Assembly: GCA_964601275.1 (NCBI GenBank) | Contig: CAZRMV010000001.1 | Location: 343,834 to 407,833 of the forward strand | Direction of reading: 5' to 3' | Source of the DNA: an uncultured bacterium | Lineage (GTDB): Bacteria > Krumholzibacteriota > Krumholzibacteriia > JAJRXK01 | DNA length: 64,000 nt | Shown: positions 9,290 to 18,915 of the stretch, in pieces | How the letters are laid out: the number at the start of each line of letters is the position of its first letter | Numbering within the stretch: the first letter of the stretch is position 1 | The notes under the pieces: model-generated | The model's database searches: none | Seen by the model: the letters and a program-made list of their open reading frames with translations, nothing else | Told to the model about the DNA's origin: nothing | Translations under genes and position numbers: made by a program

Positions 9290-10126
9290 ATGGCACGACG
9301 ACTGCGCGTGGAGGACTTCCCGGACTGGTCTTCCTACTATCGTGAATACCAGATCCGGCTGACCCGCGACCACTTGCTTCCCCTCCTTCGCCGATGGGGG
9401 TTGTGGAGCGGAAACCCGCGGGTCCTCGACGTCGGGTGCGGAGACGGGGGTGCGGCCCTGGCCCTCGACGCCGCCGGGGGACGGGTGGATGGCCTCGAGA
9501 TCGAGACCCGGCGTCTGGCCGAAGCGCAGGAGGAAGTGCGGCGCCGGGGGGTGGCGGTGCGTCTCGCGTTCGGGGACATCACCGATCCTGCGACCCTGGA
9601 CTCCTTCGCCGGGCCCTACGATCTCATCCTCTTCCGTGACGTCCTCGAACACATTCCCGACAAGGAAACGGCCTTGCGGCAAGCCCGCGCGCGGCTGGCC
9701 GAGGGCGGGAGCATCGTGGTGGTCTTCCCCCCGTATCTCTCCGCCTACGGAGGACACCAGCAGATCCTGCATCCCCGGCGTTTCGCCGGTCTTCCCCTGG
9801 CGCGCCTTCCCTGGACCCACTGTCTTCCCGTTCCGCTCTTCCGCTTCCTCGCCAGCTGTCCCGACGGACGCGAGGATCCGCAGTGGGCGGAGATCCGGAC
9901 CATCGCCGCCACCCGCCTGACCATGGCGGAGATCGCCCGGCTGGCCCGGGATCTCGACCTGGAGCCGGTCTGCAGGAAGAACTATCTCCTGCGTCCCAGT
10001 TTCCGCCTCCGCTACGGACTGCCGGTGGTGGACGCGGGTTGGCTGGGCCGGATTCCCGGGTTGAACGAGCTCCTGGTCAGCGCCAGCTACCAGGTGTTGC
10101 GCCCGCGCCGGGCTCAGCGCAGATAG
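9290..10126 (+). CDS. class I SAM-dependent methyltransferase
   Basis: ORF 8885..10126. SAM motif I VLDVGCGDGGAALAL, an acidic DGLE loop and FRDVLEHIPD. Start ATG at 9290 (MARRL); in-frame ATG at 9260 is an alternative. Divergent from gmhA. Confidence 0.75.
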   Translation: MARRLRVEDFPDWSSYYREYQIRLTRDHLLPLLRRWGLWSGNPRVLDVGCGDGGAALALDAAGGRVDGLEIETRRLAEAQEEVRRRGVAVRLAFGDITDPATLDSFAGPYDLILFRDVLEHIPDKETALRQARARLAEGGSIVVVFPPYLSAYGGHQQILHPRRFAGLPLARLPWTHCLPVPLFRFLASCPDGREDPQWAEIRTIAATRLTMAEIARLARDLDLEPVCRKNYLLRPSFRLRYGLPVVDAGWLGRIPGLNELLVSASYQVLRPRRAQRR

Positions 10127-12009
10127 CCCAGGCTGCGCAGTCGCGCCTTCGCGCTCTCGGAGAGTCGGGGGCGCGGCTGGCGCAGTCCTTCCAGGATCGA
10201 AGCAGCCCAGTTCTCCAGGATCGCCTCGTCTTCCTTCCAGAGCGGACCATCGGCGAAGCCCCGGGCCGAGGCGGGGCTACCGTGGGGCGCTCTTCGGCCG
10301 GGCAGGAGGTTCTCCTGTTCCTGCGGGTCGCGGGCAAGGTCGTAGGCCTCGTAGATCGACCTCCCGGAAGGGCAGCGGGCCAGGAGCAGCTTGCGGGTGG
10401 GACGGCGCAGGCAGAACCACAGGGTGTCGCCGGCCACGGTGGAATGGGAGAGCGAGAAGCCCGAAGGTCCGGGAAGCGTCGTGTCCACCGGGGCCAGGCC
10501 CAGACGCCGGCGCAGCGCCCGGCCCACTGCGTCCATACCCTGGGGCCTCGCCGCGAGCGAATCCAGCCAGGCGGTGTTCTCCGAACTGGAGGCGGGTTCT
10601 CTCCACCAGGCAGCCAGATGCAACTCATCCTCGAAGAGATAGGCGCCGTGATCGAAACGGTAACCGCGGCCGTGGGTCCCGAAACTCTCGCCGTGATCGG
10701 TGACCGCGACCAGTATGGTGGTGCTCCGGCGCGGGTCGCTCTGGAAGCGGCGCATCAGGCGGGTGAGGGCACGATCGACATCCTTGATCTCGCCAGCGTA
10801 GCGGGCGCGCTCGGTCCAGTAATCGTCGCCGTCGCGCGTCGGGGTCCCGTTCGTCGAGCCGCTCCCAGCGCCACCTCGCGCGGGCTCTCCCGCGACCGGG
10901 GGCAGGGTCTCCCATCCCGGCAGGGGGCCCAGCGGTTGGTAGGGACGGTGGGCGTCGTAGAAGTGCAGCCAGAGGAAGAAGGGTCGGTCGGGGTGGCGTC
11001 GCAGGAAGCGCAGCCCGAGGTCCACTGTCTCCTCGGCCCGGCGCTGATGGCTCAGACCGGTGGCCTCTCCGCGCAGGAGATCGAGCAGGCGCCGGCCCGC
11101 GGCGAGGAAGGCCAGGCGGCGACGGGGGGTGCCCGGGCGGAAGGAGTCGTCGTACTCGTCGAAGCCCTTCTCGAGGCCGCAGAGTTGCCGGTGCAGCACC
11201 GCGCTGGATACCACCGCCCCGGTGACATAGCCGCGCCCGGACAGGTCCTGGGCGAGGGTTCCCACCTCCGTGCCGATGGGCCAGCCGTTGTCCTGGGCGC
11301 CATGGAGCCGGGGGGGCAGGCCGGTGAGCAGGCTGGCGTGGGAGGGGCCGGTCAGGGGGATGGGTGCAGTGAGATGTTTCCACGCGATGGCTTCCCGCTG
11401 CAGGGTCTCCAGGAATCCGTCCGGGGGAAGGAACGATCCCCGGGGCGGCAGATGATCGCGTCGCATGGTGTCCAGGGTGATCAAGAGCAGAGACGGCGGG
11501 CGGTCCGGCCGCTCGGTGGATCCCCGGGGGGCGACCGGGGCGAGCAGGGCCCCGCTCACCGTTGCGGCCAGGGCCACCGCGCCGCCCAGTCCCAGGAGGA
11601 CGCGCCTTCGAAGGAGTCCGAAGGCGAAGACCGGCACCGCCAGGGCAAGGAGGGCAAGGCCGCTGGCCGCGGCCAGGGCGGGCAGGCGGCCCTGGGGGCC
11701 GAAACCGGGACGGAGGCTGAGGAAGGCCCTCAGCAGCACCGGCAACGCCAGGCTCAGGCCCACCGCCAGGCCGTGGACGGAGGGACGCGTCCCGCGGGCG
11801 GTGCGGGCAACGAAGGAGGACGCGAGAAGCCCCCATCCGGTGGTCAAGCCCACCGCGAGGATCCAGGTTCCCCACCACTCCGAAATGGAAAGCAGCGGGG
11901 GATGAACCGCCGGCAGGGCGCAGCGCGCTTCCACCGCGCCGGCGAACGCTCCGGCGAGCGCGCCCTCGACCAGGAGGAGTCTTCGGCTACCGGCCGGACT
12001 TGAGCTCAT
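10114..12009 (-). CDS. membrane-anchored sulfatase-family (alkaline-phosphatase superfamily) hydrolase/transferase, phosphoethanolamine-transferase/LTA-synthase-like
   Basis: 631 aa. Four to five N-terminal TM helices. Catalytic-domain motifs LLLITLDTMRRDHL, PLTGPSHASLLTG, FFLWLHFYDAHRPY and VAVTDHGESFG. The annotated start overlaps the bcp stop by 23 nt, so the real start may be an internal GTG/TTG. Confidence 0.75.
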   Translation of the reverse strand: MSSSPAGSRRLLLVEGALAGAFAGAVEARCALPAVHPPLLSISEWWGTWILAVGLTTGWGLLASSFVARTARGTRPSVHGLAVGLSLALPVLLRAFLSLRPGFGPQGRLPALAAASGLALLALAVPVFAFGLLRRRVLLGLGGAVALAATVSGALLAPVAPRGSTERPDRPPSLLLITLDTMRRDHLPPRGSFLPPDGFLETLQREAIAWKHLTAPIPLTGPSHASLLTGLPPRLHGAQDNGWPIGTEVGTLAQDLSGRGYVTGAVVSSAVLHRQLCGLEKGFDEYDDSFRPGTPRRRLAFLAAGRRLLDLLRGEATGLSHQRRAEETVDLGLRFLRRHPDRPFFLWLHFYDAHRPYQPLGPLPGWETLPPVAGEPARGGAGSGSTNGTPTRDGDDYWTERARYAGEIKDVDRALTRLMRRFQSDPRRSTTILVAVTDHGESFGTHGRGYRFDHGAYLFEDELHLAAWWREPASSSENTAWLDSLAARPQGMDAVGRALRRRLGLAPVDTTLPGPSGFSLSHSTVAGDTLWFCLRRPTRKLLLARCPSGRSIYEAYDLARDPQEQENLLPGRRAPHGSPASARGFADGPLWKEDEAILENWAASILEGLRQPRPRLSESAKARLRSLGYLR

Positions 12010-12469
12010 CGAGCTTCTCGAGGATCTGCTCGGCGTGCCGCTTCACGTCGGGGCGTTTCCAGATATGGAGGATGCGCCCCTTCTCATCCAGGAGGAAGGT
12101 GCTGCGTTTGATCCCGAAGGTCTTCTTGCCGTACATGTTCTTCTCTCCCCAGGCTCCGTATTTCTCGGCGACCTTGTGGTCGGGATCGCACAGGAGGGGG
12201 AAGGGAAGCTGGTACTTGTCGCGGAAGCGGGCGTGACTCTCCGGACCGTCGGGGGAGATCCCGTAGACCATGACCTTCCGCCGCCGCAGGGTGGCCCAGT
12301 GGTCGCGGAAGGAGCAGGCTTCCTTGGTGCAGCCCGAGGTGTTGTCGCGGGGATAGAAATAGATCACCGCCTTGCGGCCCACGATGTCGCGGTTGAGGGA
12401 GATCTTGTTCCCGTCGGTGTCCTGCAGGGTGAACGCGGGGGCTCTCTTCCCAACTTCCAGGTCGGCCAC
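11987..12469 (-). CDS. bcp: thiol peroxidase / peroxiredoxin Bcp
   Basis: 160 aa; AhpC/TSA fold with FYPRDNTSGCTKEAC (peroxidatic Cys) and full-length Bcp similarity. Confidence 0.9.
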   Translation of the reverse strand: MADLEVGKRAPAFTLQDTDGNKISLNRDIVGRKAVIYFYPRDNTSGCTKEACSFRDHWATLRRRKVMVYGISPDGPESHARFRDKYQLPFPLLCDPDHKVAEKYGAWGEKNMYGKKTFGIKRSTFLLDEKGRILHIWKRPDVKRHAEQILEKLDELKSGR

Positions 12470-12618
12470 GATCGTGTTCCTCCGTTCTGCCGGGGCAACC
12501 GGCTTGTGCCAGCGCGGGGGATTCCGCCGGGGATCATAGATCCAAGCCCCGGTTGTGGCAACGCGGCCCTCGAGCTCCCCCTTGCCGAAACCCTCGTGGA
12601 CCCCTAGGCTGTCCTCCC

Positions 12619-13005
12619 ATGGAAACCCCAGCCGATCCCCATTCGAACGAACCGGCCATCCGCGTCCTGATGATGCCGCGGGATACCAACGCCCATGGCA
12701 CCATCTTCGGCGGAATCATCCTCTCCTACATCGACCAGGCCGGGGCCATTGCCACCTACCACGCGGGGTGCCGCCAGGTGGTGACGGTGGCGATGGACAA
12801 GGTCGAGTTCCACGCGCCGGTCAACGTGGGCGACCTGGTCAGCTTCTACGCGGAGATCCTCAAGGTGGGCACGAGCTCGATCACCGTGCTGGTGCGCGTG
12901 CTGTCGCAGGGACGCAAGACGATGGAAGAGGTGCTGGTCACCGAGGCCCAGGTGACCTACGTCAACATCGACGATACCGGCCGGCCGGTGCCGATCGACG
13001 GTTGA
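12619..13005 (+). CDS. acyl-CoA thioesterase, hotdog fold (YciA-like)
   Basis: Within ORF 12553..13005, start at METPADP. LMMPRDTNAHGTIFGGIILSYIDQAGAIA is a typical YciA/4HBT motif. Confidence 0.8.
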   Translation: METPADPHSNEPAIRVLMMPRDTNAHGTIFGGIILSYIDQAGAIATYHAGCRQVVTVAMDKVEFHAPVNVGDLVSFYAEILKVGTSSITVLVRVLSQGRKTMEEVLVTEAQVTYVNIDDTGRPVPIDG

Positions 13006-13081
13006 AGCCGACCTCCTTGCCGGCTGCAATGCGGCCCCGGCGGGATGGACGAGGCGCCGTCCTCACCATCGAACTCCCGCT

Positions 13082-14527
13082 TCAGTCGAAGCCCGGGTCG
13101 GAGTTCTCGCGCACCCTCACCTTGCCGTAGGCACTGAGCGCCTCGCGCACCTCGCTCGCCACCCCGATGCAGGTGAAGGCGAGGTCGTCGGCGGGGAACC
13201 ACTTCGCGACGGCATCGCGGCAGTCGGCGAGGGTGACCGCGTCGATGCGGTCGAACAATCCGTCGATCGATCCACGGCCGAGACCATAGGCGGTGATGCG
13301 GCAGAGCGCGGTCGCGAGCGCGTCGCCGGTTTCGTAACGGTAGGGCAGTTGCCCTTTCAGGTAGGCCTTGGCCGACACGAGTTCCTCTTCGCTGATCCCC
13401 TCGCGATGCAGCCGTTCCAGGGTGGACAGGGCGAGGTCGATCGCCTCGGTGGTCGTGGCCTTGGCGGTGAAGGAACTGATGAAGGTCGATCCTGACCACC
13501 GGCGGCGCTGGACGGTGAAGCGCGCGCCGTAGCTCAGGCCGCTCTCGATCCGCAACTTCGTGTTCAGCCACGAGGTGAACCGTCCTCCGAAGATGGTACG
13601 GACCACCTCGATCGCTGCGTCGTTCCCCTCTCCCCATCGCGGGCCCAGGTTGCCGATCATGAACCAGGTCTGGGGAGTGTCCACCTTGTCCACCAGGAGG
13701 ACCTCGCGGCCGGAGAAGGGCGTCGGGGGCAGAAGATGCACCGCGGGGGCTTCAGCCCGCGGCATCTTCGCGAAGATCCGCTCCAGTTTTCCGGCGAGCA
13801 CTTCCGGGTCGATGTCTCCGACCACCGCCAGGTAGGCGCGGTCGGCTCCGACGTGTTCCCGGTAGAAGCGGCGCACCTGTTCGGGGGTGATGGACAGCAG
13901 ACTTTCCTCGGTGCCGGCGACCGGCCGTCCGTAGGGATGATCGCCGAAGACATGGGCGTCATGATACCGGCCCAGGACGAAGCGGGGATTCTCCTTGGCC
14001 TGGCGTACGTTCTCGGCCATCTGCCGGGCGAGCTTCTCGATCTCCCCGTCGTCGAAAGCGGGAGAGAGCACCGCGTCACCGAACAGGGAGAGAGCCTCGT
14101 CGAGGTCCTTGCTGAGGCATTGCATCGCGATGCGGATGCGATCGTGATCGGCCGAGGCGGAGAACCCGGCGCCGAGGAAATCGACCGCTTCGGAGAACTC
14201 GGCCGCACTGCGGCCTCCCGCACCCTTGCGCAGGCTGCGCGCGGTCAGGAGCGCCAAGCCTTCCATGCCCTGCGGATCCGCCGAGGATCCGTCGAGGATC
14301 CACATCTCCAGGTTCACCATGGGAACCGTTCCATGCGGCATCAGCAGCAGGGTGAGGCCGTTGTCCAGGATCCGGGTCGAATAGGGAGGCAGCTCGAGGC
14401 GGGGCGCGGGGTCCTCGGCGGCCAGGGAGGATTCTGCCCGAGGGGCCAACACCAGCGCCATCAGCAGACCAACCCATACCGGATGGCGCGGCCTCGGCCG
14501 TCCGAAGATCCTACCGGGATTCATCAT
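13082..14527 (-). CDS. M16-family peptidase, non-catalytic (no HxxEH) subunit, secreted
   Basis: 481 aa with signal peptide and the M16 two-domain architecture, but no HxxEH zinc motif. Start overlaps the upstream M16 gene's stop by 17 nt. Confidence 0.8.
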   Translation of the reverse strand: MMNPGRIFGRPRPRHPVWVGLLMALVLAPRAESSLAAEDPAPRLELPPYSTRILDNGLTLLLMPHGTVPMVNLEMWILDGSSADPQGMEGLALLTARSLRKGAGGRSAAEFSEAVDFLGAGFSASADHDRIRIAMQCLSKDLDEALSLFGDAVLSPAFDDGEIEKLARQMAENVRQAKENPRFVLGRYHDAHVFGDHPYGRPVAGTEESLLSITPEQVRRFYREHVGADRAYLAVVGDIDPEVLAGKLERIFAKMPRAEAPAVHLLPPTPFSGREVLLVDKVDTPQTWFMIGNLGPRWGEGNDAAIEVVRTIFGGRFTSWLNTKLRIESGLSYGARFTVQRRRWSGSTFISSFTAKATTTEAIDLALSTLERLHREGISEEELVSAKAYLKGQLPYRYETGDALATALCRITAYGLGRGSIDGLFDRIDAVTLADCRDAVAKWFPADDLAFTCIGVASEVREALSAYGKVRVRENSDPGFD

Positions 14528-15860
14528 CGCCTCCAGGACTCGGGATCAGGGTCACCACCGTGCGCCGGTCGCGGACCAGGTAGGTCGCGGCCACCCGCTG
14601 GATGTCCTGGGTGGTGACCTTGGAGGTTTCGCTCTCGGTGGAGAAGAGCCGGCGCCATCCGCCGTGGAAGAGTTCGTACTCTCCCAGCGACTCCGCCTTT
14701 CCGTTCAGGCTCGAAAGATTGCGGTAGAAGTCGGCGAGGAGGATGTTCTTCGCCTTGCGCAATTCGCGCTTGGTGACCCCCTCCTCGACGATGTTCGCCA
14801 ATTCCTCGTAGAGAGCGGCCTCGGCTCGATGGCTGTCCACTCCCTCGCGCAGTTGCAGGAAGAGGATGTACAGGGAAGGGTCGAAGGCCAGGTCGAGACT
14901 TCCCCACAGGCTCAGGACCGATTGGTCGTGATCGACCAGCCGGCGGTAGAGACGCGAACTCTCCCCCTCGGTGAGGATGAGATCGAGCAGCTGGAGGGCC
15001 GGGATGTCCGCATGGCTGGTGGGGGGTACATGCCATCCCACGGCGACGGCGGGCAGGTTGGCCTCCTTCCGCAGTTCGATGCGATGTTCCCCCTGTTGCG
15101 GGGGTTCGACGGTGACCACGTCCCGCCCGACCTCCCGCGGGGGAATGGTTCCGAGCTTCTCCTGCAGGTGTGGAAGGAGGCGCTCGGGGTCGAAAGCGCC
15201 CACGATGACCATGGTGGCGTTGTTGGGAGTGTAGAAGTGCTCGTGGAAGGCTTCGACGTCGACCTGCCGCCAATTCTCGATGTCGCTGCGCCAGCCGATC
15301 ACCGGCCACTGGTACGGATGCGCGATGAACGCGCCGGCCCAGAGCTGGATGAGCATGAGGCGGGTGTTGGAATCCTCCACGCTGCGCCGCCGCTCGCTCA
15401 TCACCACGCCTCTCTCGCTGCTGACGATCTCGGGGTCGACCGAGAGCCAGCCAATGCGATCGCGCTCGAGATCGAGGGTGGTTTCAAGGGCGCTGGCGGG
15501 AATCCAGTCTTCGTACACCGTCACGTTGCGATTGGTGTAGGCGTTGTTCGACCCTCCAGCGGCTTCCATCGTGCGGTCGAAGGCGCCCGGCGGATAGTGC
15601 TTCGACCCGTTGAACATCATGTGCTCGAAGAAATGCGCCAGTCCGGTGGTTCCCGGGGCCTCGTTGCGGCTGCCCACGTGCCAGAAGGTGTAGACGGAGA
15701 CGTTGGGGATTCCCTCGACCGGCCACAGCAGGACGCGCATGCCGTTGTCCAGCACGTGCTCCTGGATCCTTGGGGGGATCTCCGCCGCGGCGGCGGCCGA
15801 CAGGGTCAAGGAGACCACGAGGATCGCGGCCAGGAGAATGGGGCCCTTCTTCCCTCTCAT
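14511..15860 (-). CDS. M16-family zinc metallopeptidase (pitrilysin-like, HxxEH active site), secreted
   Basis: 449 aa with signal peptide and HFFEHMMFNG (inverted zincin HxxEH); second ligand E in RRRSVEDSNTR. Confidence 0.85.
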   Translation of the reverse strand: MRGKKGPILLAAILVVSLTLSAAAAAEIPPRIQEHVLDNGMRVLLWPVEGIPNVSVYTFWHVGSRNEAPGTTGLAHFFEHMMFNGSKHYPPGAFDRTMEAAGGSNNAYTNRNVTVYEDWIPASALETTLDLERDRIGWLSVDPEIVSSERGVVMSERRRSVEDSNTRLMLIQLWAGAFIAHPYQWPVIGWRSDIENWRQVDVEAFHEHFYTPNNATMVIVGAFDPERLLPHLQEKLGTIPPREVGRDVVTVEPPQQGEHRIELRKEANLPAVAVGWHVPPTSHADIPALQLLDLILTEGESSRLYRRLVDHDQSVLSLWGSLDLAFDPSLYILFLQLREGVDSHRAEAALYEELANIVEEGVTKRELRKAKNILLADFYRNLSSLNGKAESLGEYELFHGGWRRLFSTESETSKVTTQDIQRVAATYLVRDRRTVVTLIPSPGGDDESR

Positions 15861-15861
15861 C

Positions 15862-16287
15862 TCAGACCGTGATGTCGTTCAGCCACACGTCGTGCAGATT
15901 GCACATGCTCAGGGCGTACAGGGTGCCTTCGTAGCTCTCCATGGTGAAGGTCGACTCGGGCTTCTCGTCGACGACCGGATCGAAGAGGTGCTCGTCGAGG
16001 AACTTGAACTCGTGGTCGAGAAGCACGTGCTTGACGATGTAGTGCTTGTACCCGCTCATCTTGTGGTTGGTGATCACGTGCACCCTCACTCCGTCGGGGC
16101 CGGTTTCCACCTCGATCTGGGGTAGGTGTCCATCCACCTTCTTGGCCCATCGTCCCGGAGCCTCCCGGGTGTAGTAGACGCCTCCGGCCATGGGGCTTGC
16201 CGGGACCTTCGCAAAGCTGGGGCGCGGCACCACGAGGATCCCACTGGCGCCGATGAGACCGGCTTGGATGAACTGACGACGATCCAT
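15862..16287 (-). CDS. superoxide reductase (desulfoferrodoxin/neelaredoxin family) with a twin-arginine (Tat) signal peptide
   Basis: MDRRQFIQAGLIGASGILVVPRPSFA is a Tat signal. GTLYALSMCNLHDVWLNDITV closely matches neelaredoxin GKLYALSYCNIHGLWENEVTLE. The iron ligands (H in DGHLPQIE, H..H in NHKMSGYKHY, C and H in CNLH) are all present. Confidence 0.8.
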   Translation of the reverse strand: MDRRQFIQAGLIGASGILVVPRPSFAKVPASPMAGGVYYTREAPGRWAKKVDGHLPQIEVETGPDGVRVHVITNHKMSGYKHYIVKHVLLDHEFKFLDEHLFDPVVDEKPESTFTMESYEGTLYALSMCNLHDVWLNDITV

Positions 16288-16441
16288 GATCTGCTCCTCG
16301 AGCTTGGATGGGGCTGGACTCTGCGGCCGGGCGGCGGAGAAAGACCGGGCCGGGCAAGGGTCATGCGGGAAGGAGACAGCCTAGATCCATTTCCCTTCCG
16401 GCGTCAACGCCGACCGGCCCCGGCGTTGCGGCGGATCCGGG

Positions 16442-17488
16442 TCAACCCGGCGCCAGCTCGATCCCCAAACGACCCAGGGCCGTCTGGAACTCCGCCGGAA
16501 GGGGCGCTTCCACCGCGAAGCCCCGCGCGGGGTCGCTGAGAGAGAGTTTCGCCGCGTGGAGGAGTTGATGGTCGAGCACGGCGAAAAGGCCGGCTGAGGC
16601 ATCCCGCCGGGGATCGCCGTAGCGGGGATCCCCCACGACCGGCAGGTCCAGCGCCCGAAGGTGGGCGCGGATCTGGTGGGTTCGCCCGGTGATCGGCTCG
16701 GCCTCGAGCAGGCTGGCCTCCGTTCCGCGCGCGAGGAGTCGGAAGCGGGTGTGGGCGCCCACCCCTTCGGGCCCATCGGCCACCGGCACCATCTTCGGAC
16801 GGTCACGGGGAGCGTGGGCGAGCCGTCCGAGGGGGATCCTCGTCTCCAGCTCGGCCCGGGGGGGATGCCCCCAGACCACCACCAGGTAGGACTTGTGGAC
16901 GCGCCCTTCCTGCTGGGCCTGCCGGAAGGCGTCCTGGGCGGACGCGGTCAGGGTCACCGTGACCGCCCCGGTGGTGCCCTCGTCCAGGCGGTGGGGAGCG
17001 GCCGGCCGGGCGTCGCCGCGGGCGACCGCTTCGGCATAGCGGAGCTGGGCCCAGTGGAGGAGACCGGGCCATCCACCTTCTCCGTGATCGCAGGCAACGT
17101 GGGCTGGCTTGTCGACCACCACGAGTTCGGTTCCCTCGTGCAGGATCCGCGGGCTGGGTCCGCGATAGGATGGGAGCGGGCGGTCGTCTCCCGCGGGTCC
17201 CTTCCCGGGCGGGGCCGGCGCGCCGGGTCGCGCGGGCCCTTTCCCCGGAGGAACCGACGGGTCCTTCCGCACCGGGTTCTTCCGGTGGTGGGCCACCACC
17301 AGGTCGCCCGGTTCCAAGCGTATCGATCCTCGACCCCGGAGGCCGTTCACCTTCACGTCGCCTTTGCGAAGCATCCGTTGGATCCGGGAGGAGGGCAGGC
17401 CTCCCAGCTCTTCACCCAGCCGGGACTGGAGAAAGCGATCGAGCCGCCGTCCCGCGTCTGCCGCGCCCACTGTCCATTCGAACCGCAT
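16442..17488 (-). CDS. RluA-family 23S rRNA pseudouridine synthase (RluC/RluD-like) with S4 RNA-binding domain
   Basis: Within ORF 16442..17551, start at MRFEW. S4 motif RLDRFLQ; catalytic-core motifs HRLDEGTTGA and TGRTHQIRAHLRALDLPVVGD. Confidence 0.85.
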   Translation of the reverse strand: MRFEWTVGAADAGRRLDRFLQSRLGEELGGLPSSRIQRMLRKGDVKVNGLRGRGSIRLEPGDLVVAHHRKNPVRKDPSVPPGKGPARPGAPAPPGKGPAGDDRPLPSYRGPSPRILHEGTELVVVDKPAHVACDHGEGGWPGLLHWAQLRYAEAVARGDARPAAPHRLDEGTTGAVTVTLTASAQDAFRQAQQEGRVHKSYLVVVWGHPPRAELETRIPLGRLAHAPRDRPKMVPVADGPEGVGAHTRFRLLARGTEASLLEAEPITGRTHQIRAHLRALDLPVVGDPRYGDPRRDASAGLFAVLDHQLLHAAKLSLSDPARGFAVEAPLPAEFQTALGRLGIELAPG

Positions 17489-17577
17489 GATCCTCCCTGA
17501 AGCCGCGGGAACGCGCCGCCTTCCTTGACCCATGGGCCCTCGAGTCTCCATAATGGACCAAAGACCCGCCGCCCGCG

Positions 17578-18915
17578 ATGGGCCAGTGCCGATGCGGCTG
17601 TTTCCCTGCCCCCTCTCGCCCGCCCCTCTCCCTGGAGGCTCCCGTGCGTCTGGATCCGAAGACGAACCCCTCGTACCTCAAGCTGGACCTCTACTGCAAA
17701 GGGGCGCGGATCGACGAGAGTTGTTTCGTGGAAGAGTCCGGCGGGCGGCCGATCCTCCGCACGCGCGCCGGGCTGGGCAGTGGCCTCGAGCTGATCCTCC
17801 CCGCCGGGATGTGGACCAATGTTCCGGTCACCGAGGACTTCACCCGCCGCTCGCCCTATCTCATCCGGATGGAGAAGGGCTCCTTGATCCTGGAACGTGA
17901 CGGGGAGTTCATCTGCCGTCCCAAGCTCTCGCCCAAACCGCAGTGGTACGAACGCGAGACCACCACCGGCCGGAAGATGCGCCAGGTGGGCAGTCTCCAG
18001 GGAACCTATCTCGGTATCTATCCCGGGAAGGTCTGCGAGTACTGGACCCGCGACACCAAGGTGAACTGCCATTTCTGCAGCGTGGGACTGAACCTCGGGC
18101 ACGATGATGCCGACGAGAAGAACGTCGGAGAGGTGATGCAGGTGGTCCGCGCCGCGGTCCTGGAGAGTGGCGTCACCTACGTCGACTTCAACACCGGCCA
18201 CTACGAAGGCGAAACCTACCTCGATCTGCTCGAGCCCTACATCGAAGCCATCAAGAAGGAGACGGGGCTCTTGATCGGCATCCAGACCCCGCCCCATTCC
18301 GACCTGAGCCGGTATGACCGGTTGAAGAAGCTGGGGGTCAACCGGGTCAGCTTCTGTTTCGAACTCTTCAATCGCGAGCGCTTCATCGAGGTGTGCCCGG
18401 GAAAGCATTCCCAGTACGGCCTCGACCGCTACCTCGAGGCCATCCGGTATTGCGCCGGGTTGGGACGCGAGGAGAGCTCCTTGCTCGATCCCTGGGTGAC
18501 CAACGGGGAGATCATCGCCGGCCTGGAGGATCCGAAGGACAGCATCGCCGCCATCGACTGGATCACCGAACAGGGGGCCATTCCCACCGTCTGCGTCTTC
18601 CGTCCGCTGGCCGGTACCGACTACGCCGGGGTGGACGTGCCCGACACCGAGGAGATGGTCCCGGTCTTCGCCCGCCTCTACGACCGCTGCATGGAGAAGG
18701 GACTGCCCATCGGGGTGGCGCCCAACATCCACGTGAGCCTGGTGATGTTGCCCGAAGAGTGCGAAGGACTGAGCCAGCGTCCGAAGGCCCATTTCGGCCA
18801 TCGCATGAAACTGAAGGCGATGCACTCGGTCTTCTCCGCCGCCTACTATGCCCGCCTGGAACGGGCCAAGCGCGAACTGCGCCGAAGGGTCGAGGCGGGG
18901 GAGGTGGTGGCCTAG
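17578..18915 (+). CDS. radical-SAM-like Fe-S enzyme with noncanonical Cys spacing (Cx10CxxC) and an ~130 aa N-terminal domain
   Basis: 445 aa. Cys cluster VCEYWTRDTKVNCHFCSVG, then ~45 aa later a GGE-like HYEGE and a TIM-barrel-like periodicity. No canonical CX3CX2C. An internal GTG start is possible. Confidence 0.45.
   Translation: MGQCRCGCFPAPSRPPLSLEAPVRLDPKTNPSYLKLDLYCKGARIDESCFVEESGGRPILRTRAGLGSGLELILPAGMWTNVPVTEDFTRRSPYLIRMEKGSLILERDGEFICRPKLSPKPQWYERETTTGRKMRQVGSLQGTYLGIYPGKVCEYWTRDTKVNCHFCSVGLNLGHDDADEKNVGEVMQVVRAAVLESGVTYVDFNTGHYEGETYLDLLEPYIEAIKKETGLLIGIQTPPHSDLSRYDRLKKLGVNRVSFCFELFNRERFIEVCPGKHSQYGLDRYLEAIRYCAGLGREESSLLDPWVTNGEIIAGLEDPKDSIAAIDWITEQGAIPTVCVFRPLAGTDYAGVDVPDTEEMVPVFARLYDRCMEKGLPIGVAPNIHVSLVMLPEECEGLSQRPKAHFGHRMKLKAMHSVFSAAYYARLERAKRELRRRVEAGEVVA

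Follow-up and report, generated by a model that had tools for sequence, protein, structure and literature searches.

Canonical superoxide reductases (SORs) are cytoplasmic enzymes of anaerobes. The locus described here, part of a 64,000-nt stretch of DNA that was analysed as a whole (the window), places a gene for an SOR-like protein with an apparent twin-arginine signal directly ahead of two genes for M16 peptidases, which raises the question of whether the three products work together in the periplasm and whether the first of them is a superoxide reductase at all. The first-pass annotation had answered with a periplasmic oxidative-stress and proteolysis module. We favor a different reading, to which we give a probability of about 0.7: two independent units, an exported protein of the TAT-SOR class and an M16B heterodimer, have been fused in one transcript here.

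All three genes lie on the minus strand and are tightly packed, as had been described. The SOR-like gene (15862..16287, 141 aa) is followed by the gene for the active subunit of an M16B peptidase (M16A, 14511..15860, 449 aa) and then by that for the inactive subunit (the M16B gene, 13082..14527, 481 aa). The stop codon of the SOR-like gene is separated from the ATG of M16A by 1 nt (TGAgATG), and M16A overlaps the M16B gene by 17 nt. A GAGGAG Shine-Dalgarno sequence precedes the SOR-like ATG, while GGAGG is found 4 nt 5' of the M16B ATG, inside the end of M16A. The GC content at codon position 3 is alike in the three genes (0.84-0.85), and scanning positions 12400-17700 for sigma-70 promoters and terminators gave no sites between them. 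Given the short gap, the overlap and the lack of promoter-like or terminator-like sites at the junctions, the three genes are almost certainly transcribed together in the window genome. The proposed co-transcription with the M16 pair is supported by the gene layout, but not as the mark of a functional module.

A promoter-like element, TTGACG and TAGGCT spaced by 18 nt, is located 5' of the SOR-like gene (16378..16407, minus strand). It is the sole match within the window, where shuffling gives an expectation of 0, and an intergenic alignment of six Krumholzibacteriota lineages shows conserved TTGACG and -10-like TAGRCT/TAAACT blocks. We consider it a putative promoter of the SOR-like gene. The element had been missed by the sigma-70 scan and was revealed by the intergenic alignment. 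Scans of the window for tRNAs and Rfam families returned no matches.

The SOR-like protein matches PF01880, the desulfoferrodoxin ferrous-iron domain, over residues 49-136 (score 34.9 bits, the curated cutoff being 22.2; E 2.4e-8), and its sequence matches in the PDB are SORs. The iron ligands H54, H75, H82, C129, and H132 align with the ligand motifs of SORs in the PDB and are invariant, along with R3, R4, and K50, across 112 relatives. Both the complete set of iron ligands and the C-terminal match to SORs (CNLHD) noticed on first reading were confirmed. An AF2 model of the protein has a pLDDT of 84.9, with residues 8-27 disordered, and the top 11 Foldseek matches to it are all SORs (E down to 2e-8, TM up to 0.74), the best being those of Ignicoccus hospitalis and Pyrococcus. 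An identity as SoxY/SoxZ, raised by Foldseek fold matches, was rejected on the strength of the His4Cys ligands and of the Pfam match, both of which indicate an SOR. The "class III" label originally attached to the protein was wrong; the protein has one SOR domain, of the class II/neelaredoxin type, and a signal peptide.

The protein belongs to an exported clade that spans several phyla and comprises at least 200 clusters when grouped at 90% identity, or 165 representatives when the threshold is 50% identity with E<=1e-10, so that describing Tat-signal SORs as rare was an overstatement. That they have been catalogued is correct: SORGOdb established a TAT-SOR class in 2011 with seven examples from Desulfovibrio, Desulfuromonas, and Geobacter (Lucchetti-Miganeh et al. 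2011, PMC3116461), and for Sulfurimonas pluma a published account already reads the "TAT-1Fe-SOR" as periplasmic (PMC10066037). The window protein is a member of the TAT-SOR class as judged from its sequence features, the match being to the description of the class and not to the SORGOdb sequences. A literature search for characterised periplasmic or Tat SORs found no biochemical study or assay of any clade member, in agreement with their earlier description as functionally uncharacterised, and a search on oxidative-stress genes of Krumholzibacteriota likewise found no biochemical study.

Superoxide reductase activity of the clade is an extrapolation, because the window protein scores far under the NCBIfam cutoffs (18.4 against 61.9 bits for TIGR00332, neela_ferrous, and 17.2 against 146.9 bits for TIGR00320, dfx_rbo) and because the canonical catalytic Glu-Lys pair before the first His ligand is missing, the sequence there being D52-G53-H54. 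The same holds across the clade, in which EKHxP occurs in 0 of 97 full-length representatives and K-x3-H-x-P in 81. The clade also has invariant residues of its own, K86, H87, E99, and D133, that fall outside the canonical SOR signature. It is present in aerobes (e.g., Marinobacter, Ferrimonas, and methanotrophs), and it includes tandem forms of 3-7 domains, some of them Tat-lipoproteins, an architecture unusual for a diffusion-limited scavenger. Together with the silence of the biochemical literature, these features could mean that the clade is a periplasmic non-haem iron protein in which the SOR fold and the His4Cys site are reused for electron transfer, for some other small-molecule redox reaction, or for iron handling. 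The invariance of all five ligands and the SOR fold argue against this, as does the alignment of K50 with K21 of the I. hospitalis enzyme. That enzyme, on which Pinho and colleagues are said to have reported in 2012, is reportedly still efficient without the Lys, and a PDB entry exists for its T24K variant. The SOR of N. equitans is, going by the title of the paper on it, a natural SOR that lacks the Glu and is still efficient. We consider a role other than superoxide reduction unlikely, while giving it some weight. A stronger version, in which the exported clade forms a functionally distinct family of periplasmic non-haem iron enzymes and not a relocated superoxide reductase, and to which a lineage-specific link with the M16 pair might be added, appears quite doubtful; if it is true, the chemistry would differ, or the electron partners, or both.

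The second unit of our preferred reading is the M16 pair. Both proteins contain PF00675 and PF05193, an M16 N-terminal domain with an M16_C domain, and the active/inactive assignment made at first sight proved correct. M16A carries H76-F-F-E79-H80 and E156, and neither the HxxEH motif nor a distal Glu was found in the M16B protein. The best PDB match of M16A is 3amj_C, "zinc peptidase active subunit" (3e-66), and that of the M16B protein is 3amj_B, "zinc peptidase inactive subunit" (1e-34). In SPH2681 the catalytic residues are tabulated as 51-HALEH-55...E131 (PMC12731061), and the spacing from HxxEH to Glu, 76 residues, is the same in M16A. Both window proteins have N-terminal signals, a Sec-type one in M16A (MRGKKGPILLAAILVVSLTLSAAAAA) and a hydrophobic signal-like segment in the M16B protein (VWVGLLMALVLAP...SLA/AE). 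The two are homologous to chains C and B of 3AMJ, from which we infer that they form a heterodimeric M16B peptidase.

To see whether the SOR-like gene and the M16 pair belong together, we compared the locus across genomes. Its closest relatives are Candidatus Krumholzibacteriota, in which a syntenic block can be recognized: ALDH, radical SAM, RluA, SOR, in some lineages three polysaccharide genes, M16A, M16B, thioesterase, and Bcp. The SOR-like and M16 genes adjoin in 2 of about 6 lineages of the phylum, the only other case being the P0002 lineage, with a relative at 69% identity and a gap of 71 nt. At least four lineages show an interruption, either by polysaccharide genes, as in L001-L003, where a flippase gene and two GT2 genes, all on the opposite strand, intervene, or by a single opposite-strand gene directly after the SOR-like gene, as in L031/L032. 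Among 19 loci from other phyla, none had an M16 gene within reach of the SOR-like gene, and their contexts were unrelated. RluA and SOR stay next to each other more consistently within the phylum than SOR and M16 do, which points to plain synteny, and the M16 genes remain paired and hold their place even without the SOR-like gene. All-against-all clustering of open reading frames in 17 genome loci, together with Pfam contexts in further metagenome loci, revealed no conserved neighbour of the SOR-like gene beyond genus- or phylum-level synteny; nor was a cytochrome or another evident electron donor adjacent to it in these loci. Because the SOR-M16 adjacency is interrupted within the phylum and absent from all 19 outside loci, we take it to be local synteny.

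These comparisons bear directly on the module proposed in the first-pass annotation, in which the SOR and the M16 heterodimer would be dedicated to a common periplasmic task, for example with superoxide removed by the SOR and periplasmic peptides damaged by oxidation cleared by the peptidase. Such a module would account for the tight coupling of the three genes, for the export signals on all three products, and for the adjacency retained in the P0002 relative; a Bcp/PrxQ peroxiredoxin gene is, in addition, located 600 bp downstream. However, Bcp lacks a signal peptide and its gene is separated from the three genes by a convergent thioesterase gene, and neither the broken adjacency nor the independence of the M16 pair is what a dedicated module would lead one to expect. 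The neighbourhood data already largely refute this reading, and we regard it as very unlikely. The adjacency is not conserved, and the SOR-plus-M16 module, the specific new claim made for the locus, does not hold. As the TGAgATG coupling is so close and the adjacency is kept at 69% identity, a functional link confined to this lineage might nevertheless exist.

The N-terminus of the SOR-like protein reads MDRRQFIQ, followed by an uncharged h-region and then PRPSFA, with signal cleavage predicted after SFA26. The twin-arginine signal (RRQFIQ) recognized earlier turned out to be family-wide: RRxF[IML] and an AxA-like site are each found in 112/112 relatives, and 111/112 have 13 or more uncharged residues in a row. 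From the motif rules and this conservation we infer that the protein is exported. The mature protein is predicted to be a single SOR domain of ~115 aa after a signal of roughly residues 1-26. A chance RR motif in a protein that is cytoplasmic, like canonical SORs, is highly improbable, given that R3, R4, and F6 vary little or not at all among the relatives, that the N-terminal region is disordered in the AF2 model, unlike the domain, and that most of the members without the Tat motif among the 97 full-length clade representatives have Sec or lipoprotein signals instead.

In the reading that we prefer, that of two independent units in one transcript, the SOR-like protein would fold and bind mononuclear iron at its His4Cys site in the cytoplasm and would be exported in the folded state via Tat, with signal peptidase I probably cleaving after Ala26. 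In the periplasm it would most likely convert superoxide to H2O2 with electrons from a periplasmic donor, and the invariant K50, four residues before the first His ligand, probably replaces the missing canonical Lys, as has been proposed for the I. hospitalis enzyme. M16A and the M16B protein would constitute a Sec-exported, clam-shell zinc oligopeptidase of the SPH2681/SPH2682 type, whose catalytic subunit would need the non-catalytic partner. The 1-nt spacing between the SOR-like gene and M16A would reflect a lineage-specific rearrangement within the syntenic block and not a shared function.

The existence of an exported clade, also in aerobes, poses the questions of how periplasmic superoxide is handled and which donor re-reduces the iron site. 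These questions belong to the TAT-SOR clade as a whole, catalogued since 2011, and not to the window locus, which adds only another member and a record for a Krumholzibacteriota-like phylum. The clade signature, a Lys at position His-4 with no Glu-Lys pair, and the tandem-domain forms may serve as leads for the characterisation of TAT-SORs.

Several known systems can be compared with the two units. The SORGOdb TAT-SORs and the S. pluma protein share with the window protein a single SOR (centre II) domain after a twin-arginine signal, a predicted periplasmic location, and a variable genomic context; the window protein differs from the SORGOdb examples in coming from a Krumholzibacteriota-like genome. 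Canonical 1Fe-SORs (Pyrococcus furiosus, 1DO6; P. horikoshii, 2HVB; Archaeoglobus fulgidus) have the same Ig-like sandwich fold and His4Cys site, and the C-terminal CN(L/I)H-x-W motif is common to 1Fe-SORs, neelaredoxins, and the window protein. Canonical SORs, however, have E-K-H-x-P, H-x5-H, and CNxHG and no signal peptide, whereas the window protein has K-x3-H-x-P, H-x6-H, CNLHD, and a Tat signal. The best structural match is the neelaredoxin of I. hospitalis (PDB 4BK8; 4BRJ, T24K; 4BRV, E23A), with TM values of 0.71-0.74. It too carries a Lys at His-4 and none next to the first His ligand, with K21-A-E-T-H25 corresponding to K50-V-D-G-H54 in the window protein. On the other hand, the I. 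hospitalis enzyme is cytoplasmic, has no signal peptide, and is only ~27% identical, and at the position of Asp52 in the window protein, which varies across the clade, it keeps a Glu (E23). The M16 pair resembles SPH2681/SPH2682 of Sphingomonas sp. A1 (PDB 3AMJ) in its adjacent genes, its subunits of ~50 kDa, and the occurrence of HxxEH...E in one subunit only, and differs from it in that both window subunits bear N-terminal signal-like sequences. The same two-subunit arrangement, with HxxEH...E in one subunit, is found in TTHA1264/1265 and in mitochondrial MPP beta/alpha.

The locus was recovered exactly as the first-pass annotation had drawn it: three minus-strand genes encode a superoxide reductase (SOR)-like protein of 141 residues (15862-16287; PF01880, 34.9 bits against a Pfam cutoff of 22.2) and two M16 peptidase subunits, M16A (14511-15860; 449 residues) and M16B (13082-14527; 481 residues), both with Pfam domains PF00675 and PF05193. 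A single base separates the SOR stop codon from the M16A ATG (TGAgATG), and the M16A and M16B genes overlap by 17 nt. The Shine-Dalgarno sequence GAGGAG lies upstream of the SOR ATG, and GGAGG lies 4 nt upstream of that of M16B. Third-codon-position GC is 0.84-0.85 in all three genes. Because GC content is 64-74% throughout the 64 kb, long shadow ORFs are plentiful on both strands, and the long plus-strand ORFs across 13082-16287 were rejected as such. Neither tRNA genes (tRNA scan) nor Rfam families at the gathering threshold were found in the whole window.

A PDB sequence search with the SOR-like protein returned only superoxide reductases (Pyrococcus horikoshii, Ignicoccus hospitalis, Treponema pallidum, and P. 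furiosus). An AlphaFold model computed from an alignment of 112 relatives (mean pLDDT 84.9, confident outside the presumed signal peptide at residues 8-27) had as its top Foldseek match the I. hospitalis neelaredoxin (TM up to 0.74), followed by other SORs. The iron ligands His54, His75, His82, Cys129, and His132 are invariant in the 112-sequence alignment, as are Lys50, Lys86, His87, Glu99, and Asp133. The proposed SOR-like identity is supported by the PF01880 match, the five ligands, and the fold. The model (m6dcb54942565) also matches SoxY/SoxZ of Paracoccus, a small periplasmic Ig-like sandwich, with a TM of about 0.7. SoxY is Tat-exported; we take the match to be a fold-level similarity only.

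While in canonical SORs the first His is preceded by a catalytic Glu-Lys pair, the window protein lacks it (Asp52-Gly53-His54), and its His75-His82 spacing is x6 instead of x5. It scores far under the cutoffs of the NCBIfam SOR models. The I. hospitalis enzyme also naturally lacks the adjacent Lys, as implied by PDB entries of its T24K and E23A mutants, and its Lys21 (K21-A-E23-T24-H25) aligns with Lys50 of the window protein, four residues ahead of His54. That enzyme, studied by Pinho et al. in 2012, is reportedly an efficient SOR nonetheless. According to citing papers, Lombard et al. 2001 dealt with the roles of Glu47 and Lys48, and the Nanoarchaeum equitans SOR, which lacks the Glu, is active according to the title of Rodrigues et al. 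2008 as cited elsewhere. A family profile searched against 1.84 billion representatives gave only 400 matches at E<=1e-3, of which 165 reach E<=1e-10; the exported family is a small clade, well set apart, rather than the main body of SORs. EKHxP occurs in 0 of the 97 listed representatives of at least 125 residues, and K-x3-H-x-P in 81. A function other than superoxide reduction for this clade, which the missing Glu-Lys pair might suggest, seems unlikely beside the invariant iron site and the I. hospitalis precedent.

The nearest relatives come from Krumholzibacteriota MAGs. An identical protein on JGI contigs lies in unchanged gene order, and a 69%-identity relative (P0002) has the order RluA, SOR, M16A, M16B, thioesterase, Bcp; these are the two lineages that retain SOR-M16 adjacency. 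The SOR-M16A gap of P0002 is 71 nt, compared with 1 nt in the window, and holds after the SOR stop a small hairpin, GGCGG-cttct-CCGCC (locus L018, 6428-6442), whose intergenic region has no counterpart in the window. At three loci of 64-66% identity (L001, L002, L003), ALDH, radical SAM, RluA, and SOR are kept and M16A and M16B lie farther along, beyond about 3.9 kb of opposite-strand genes for a Wzx-like flippase and two GT2 glycosyltransferases, a three-gene polysaccharide cassette that either some lineages may have gained or the rest may have lost. In another relative (P0005, 64% identity) an opposite-strand gene directly follows SOR. At the 19 loci outside the phylum, whose contexts are unrelated to one another, no M16 gene was found near the SOR-like gene (within flanks of 5-6 kb, or as far as the contig extends, even at E<=1e-3). 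RluA-SOR adjacency is better kept, in 6/6 Krumholzibacteriota lineages, and immediately before SOR all six conserve a promoter-like element (16378-16407, minus strand; TTGACG, 18 nt, TAGGCT in the window), missed by a simple sigma-70 scan; its -10-like block reads TAGACT or TAAACT in L018, L001-L003, and L031. A true SOR-M16 functional module, as the first-pass annotation had proposed on the strength of presumed co-transcription, is therefore very improbable, close as the genes stand in the window; adjacency that is not conserved was what the annotation itself had named as refuting it. In the simplest reading, SOR would have its own promoter and the M16 pair would be an independent unit, a lineage-specific rearrangement having made them contiguous, and probably co-transcribed, in the window genome.

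Other features of these neighborhoods were recorded. The MAG MFD05684.bin.2.283 holds, on large contigs 65837 (L001) and 65836 (L003), two syntenic copies of the whole block (ALDH, radical SAM, RluA, SOR, polysaccharide genes, M16A, M16B), which may reflect either the binning of two strains into one MAG or a large duplication. A "variant radical SAM" gene (NF045502, 189 bits; 17578-18915, plus strand) is divergent to that of an RluA-family pseudouridine synthase (16442-17551, minus strand), and every Krumholzibacteriota locus examined conserves the pair. The gene of a cytoplasmic Bcp/PrxQ peroxiredoxin (11987-12469, minus strand) shares 23 nt with the start of a 631-residue sulfatase-family gene with a hydrophobic-looking N-terminus (10114-12009, minus strand). 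The overlap suggests an odd co-transcribed pair, whose order the closest relative keeps.

Arg3 and Arg4 of the signal are invariant, and the Tat-like pattern RRxF[IML] and an AxA-like site are present in 112/112 relatives, and in 111 of them at least 13 uncharged residues follow the RR motif; the nearly invariant Ala26 is likely the -1 residue of the cleavage site. From this motif and its conservation we infer Tat export, as previously proposed, and a cytoplasmic location is extremely improbable. A Tat-like motif is found in 74 of the 97 listed representatives and many others carry Sec or lipoprotein signals, so the clade as a whole is extracytoplasmic. Its hosts include Ferrimonas, Marinobacter, Methylococcales, Desulfomonilaceae, Hyphomicrobiales, and Candidatus Krumholzibacteriota. 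Some members (P0121, P0122, P0132, P0143, P0169, P0174) are tandem proteins of 3 to about 7 SOR-like domains, among them P0121 (509 residues, Tat signal), P0122 (379 residues, Tat signal and lipobox-like Cys), and P0174 (1163 residues); the three sequences inspected (P0121, P0122, P0132) keep K-x3-H-x-P, H-x5-H, and CNLH in most repeats. To our knowledge, multi-domain SORs of this type have not been described before. The TAT-SOR class was defined by SORGOdb in 2011, then with seven predicted members (PMC3116461), and a Sulfurimonas pluma TAT-1Fe-SOR with high transcription was read in 2023 as a periplasmic superoxide scavenger (PMC10066037); our literature search found no biochemical characterization of a Tat or periplasmic SOR.

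The composite reading, a Tat-exported periplasmic SOR and a separate M16B oligopeptidase pair, has in our estimate a probability of about 0.7. The Ig-like domain would most likely acquire iron and fold in the cytoplasm, be exported folded by Tat, and be cleaved after Ala26; once in the periplasm it would reduce superoxide at its solvent-exposed His4Cys ferrous site, with Lys50 supplying the positive charge or proton relay, and some periplasmic carrier would re-reduce the iron. All steps beyond the sequence features are inferred. M16A and M16B most likely form, likewise in the periplasm, a clam-shell zinc oligopeptidase. By inspection, the M16A N-terminus is a Sec signal of classical type (MRGKKG, then a hydrophobic core and AAA/AE), and that of M16B has positive charge, a hydrophobic segment, and SLA/AE.

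The closest solved relatives of the two subunits are two chains of one complex, SPH2681/SPH2682 of Sphingomonas sp. A1: M16A best matches the "active subunit" (3amj_C, 3e-66) and M16B the "inactive subunit" (3amj_B, 1e-34). M16A has H76-F-F-E-H80 and Glu156, and the 76-residue HxxEH-to-Glu spacing is identical to that of SPH2681 (51-HALEH-55...E131; tabulated in a 2025 review, PMC12731061), while M16B has no HxxEH. Of the first-pass interpretation, the active/inactive pair thus stands with the Tat-SOR-like identity, and the functional module does not. The pair appears to be an ordinary bacterial M16B heterodimer arrangement, and the SOR-like protein beside this common peptidase pair a further member, of predicted function, of the catalogued TAT-SOR class.
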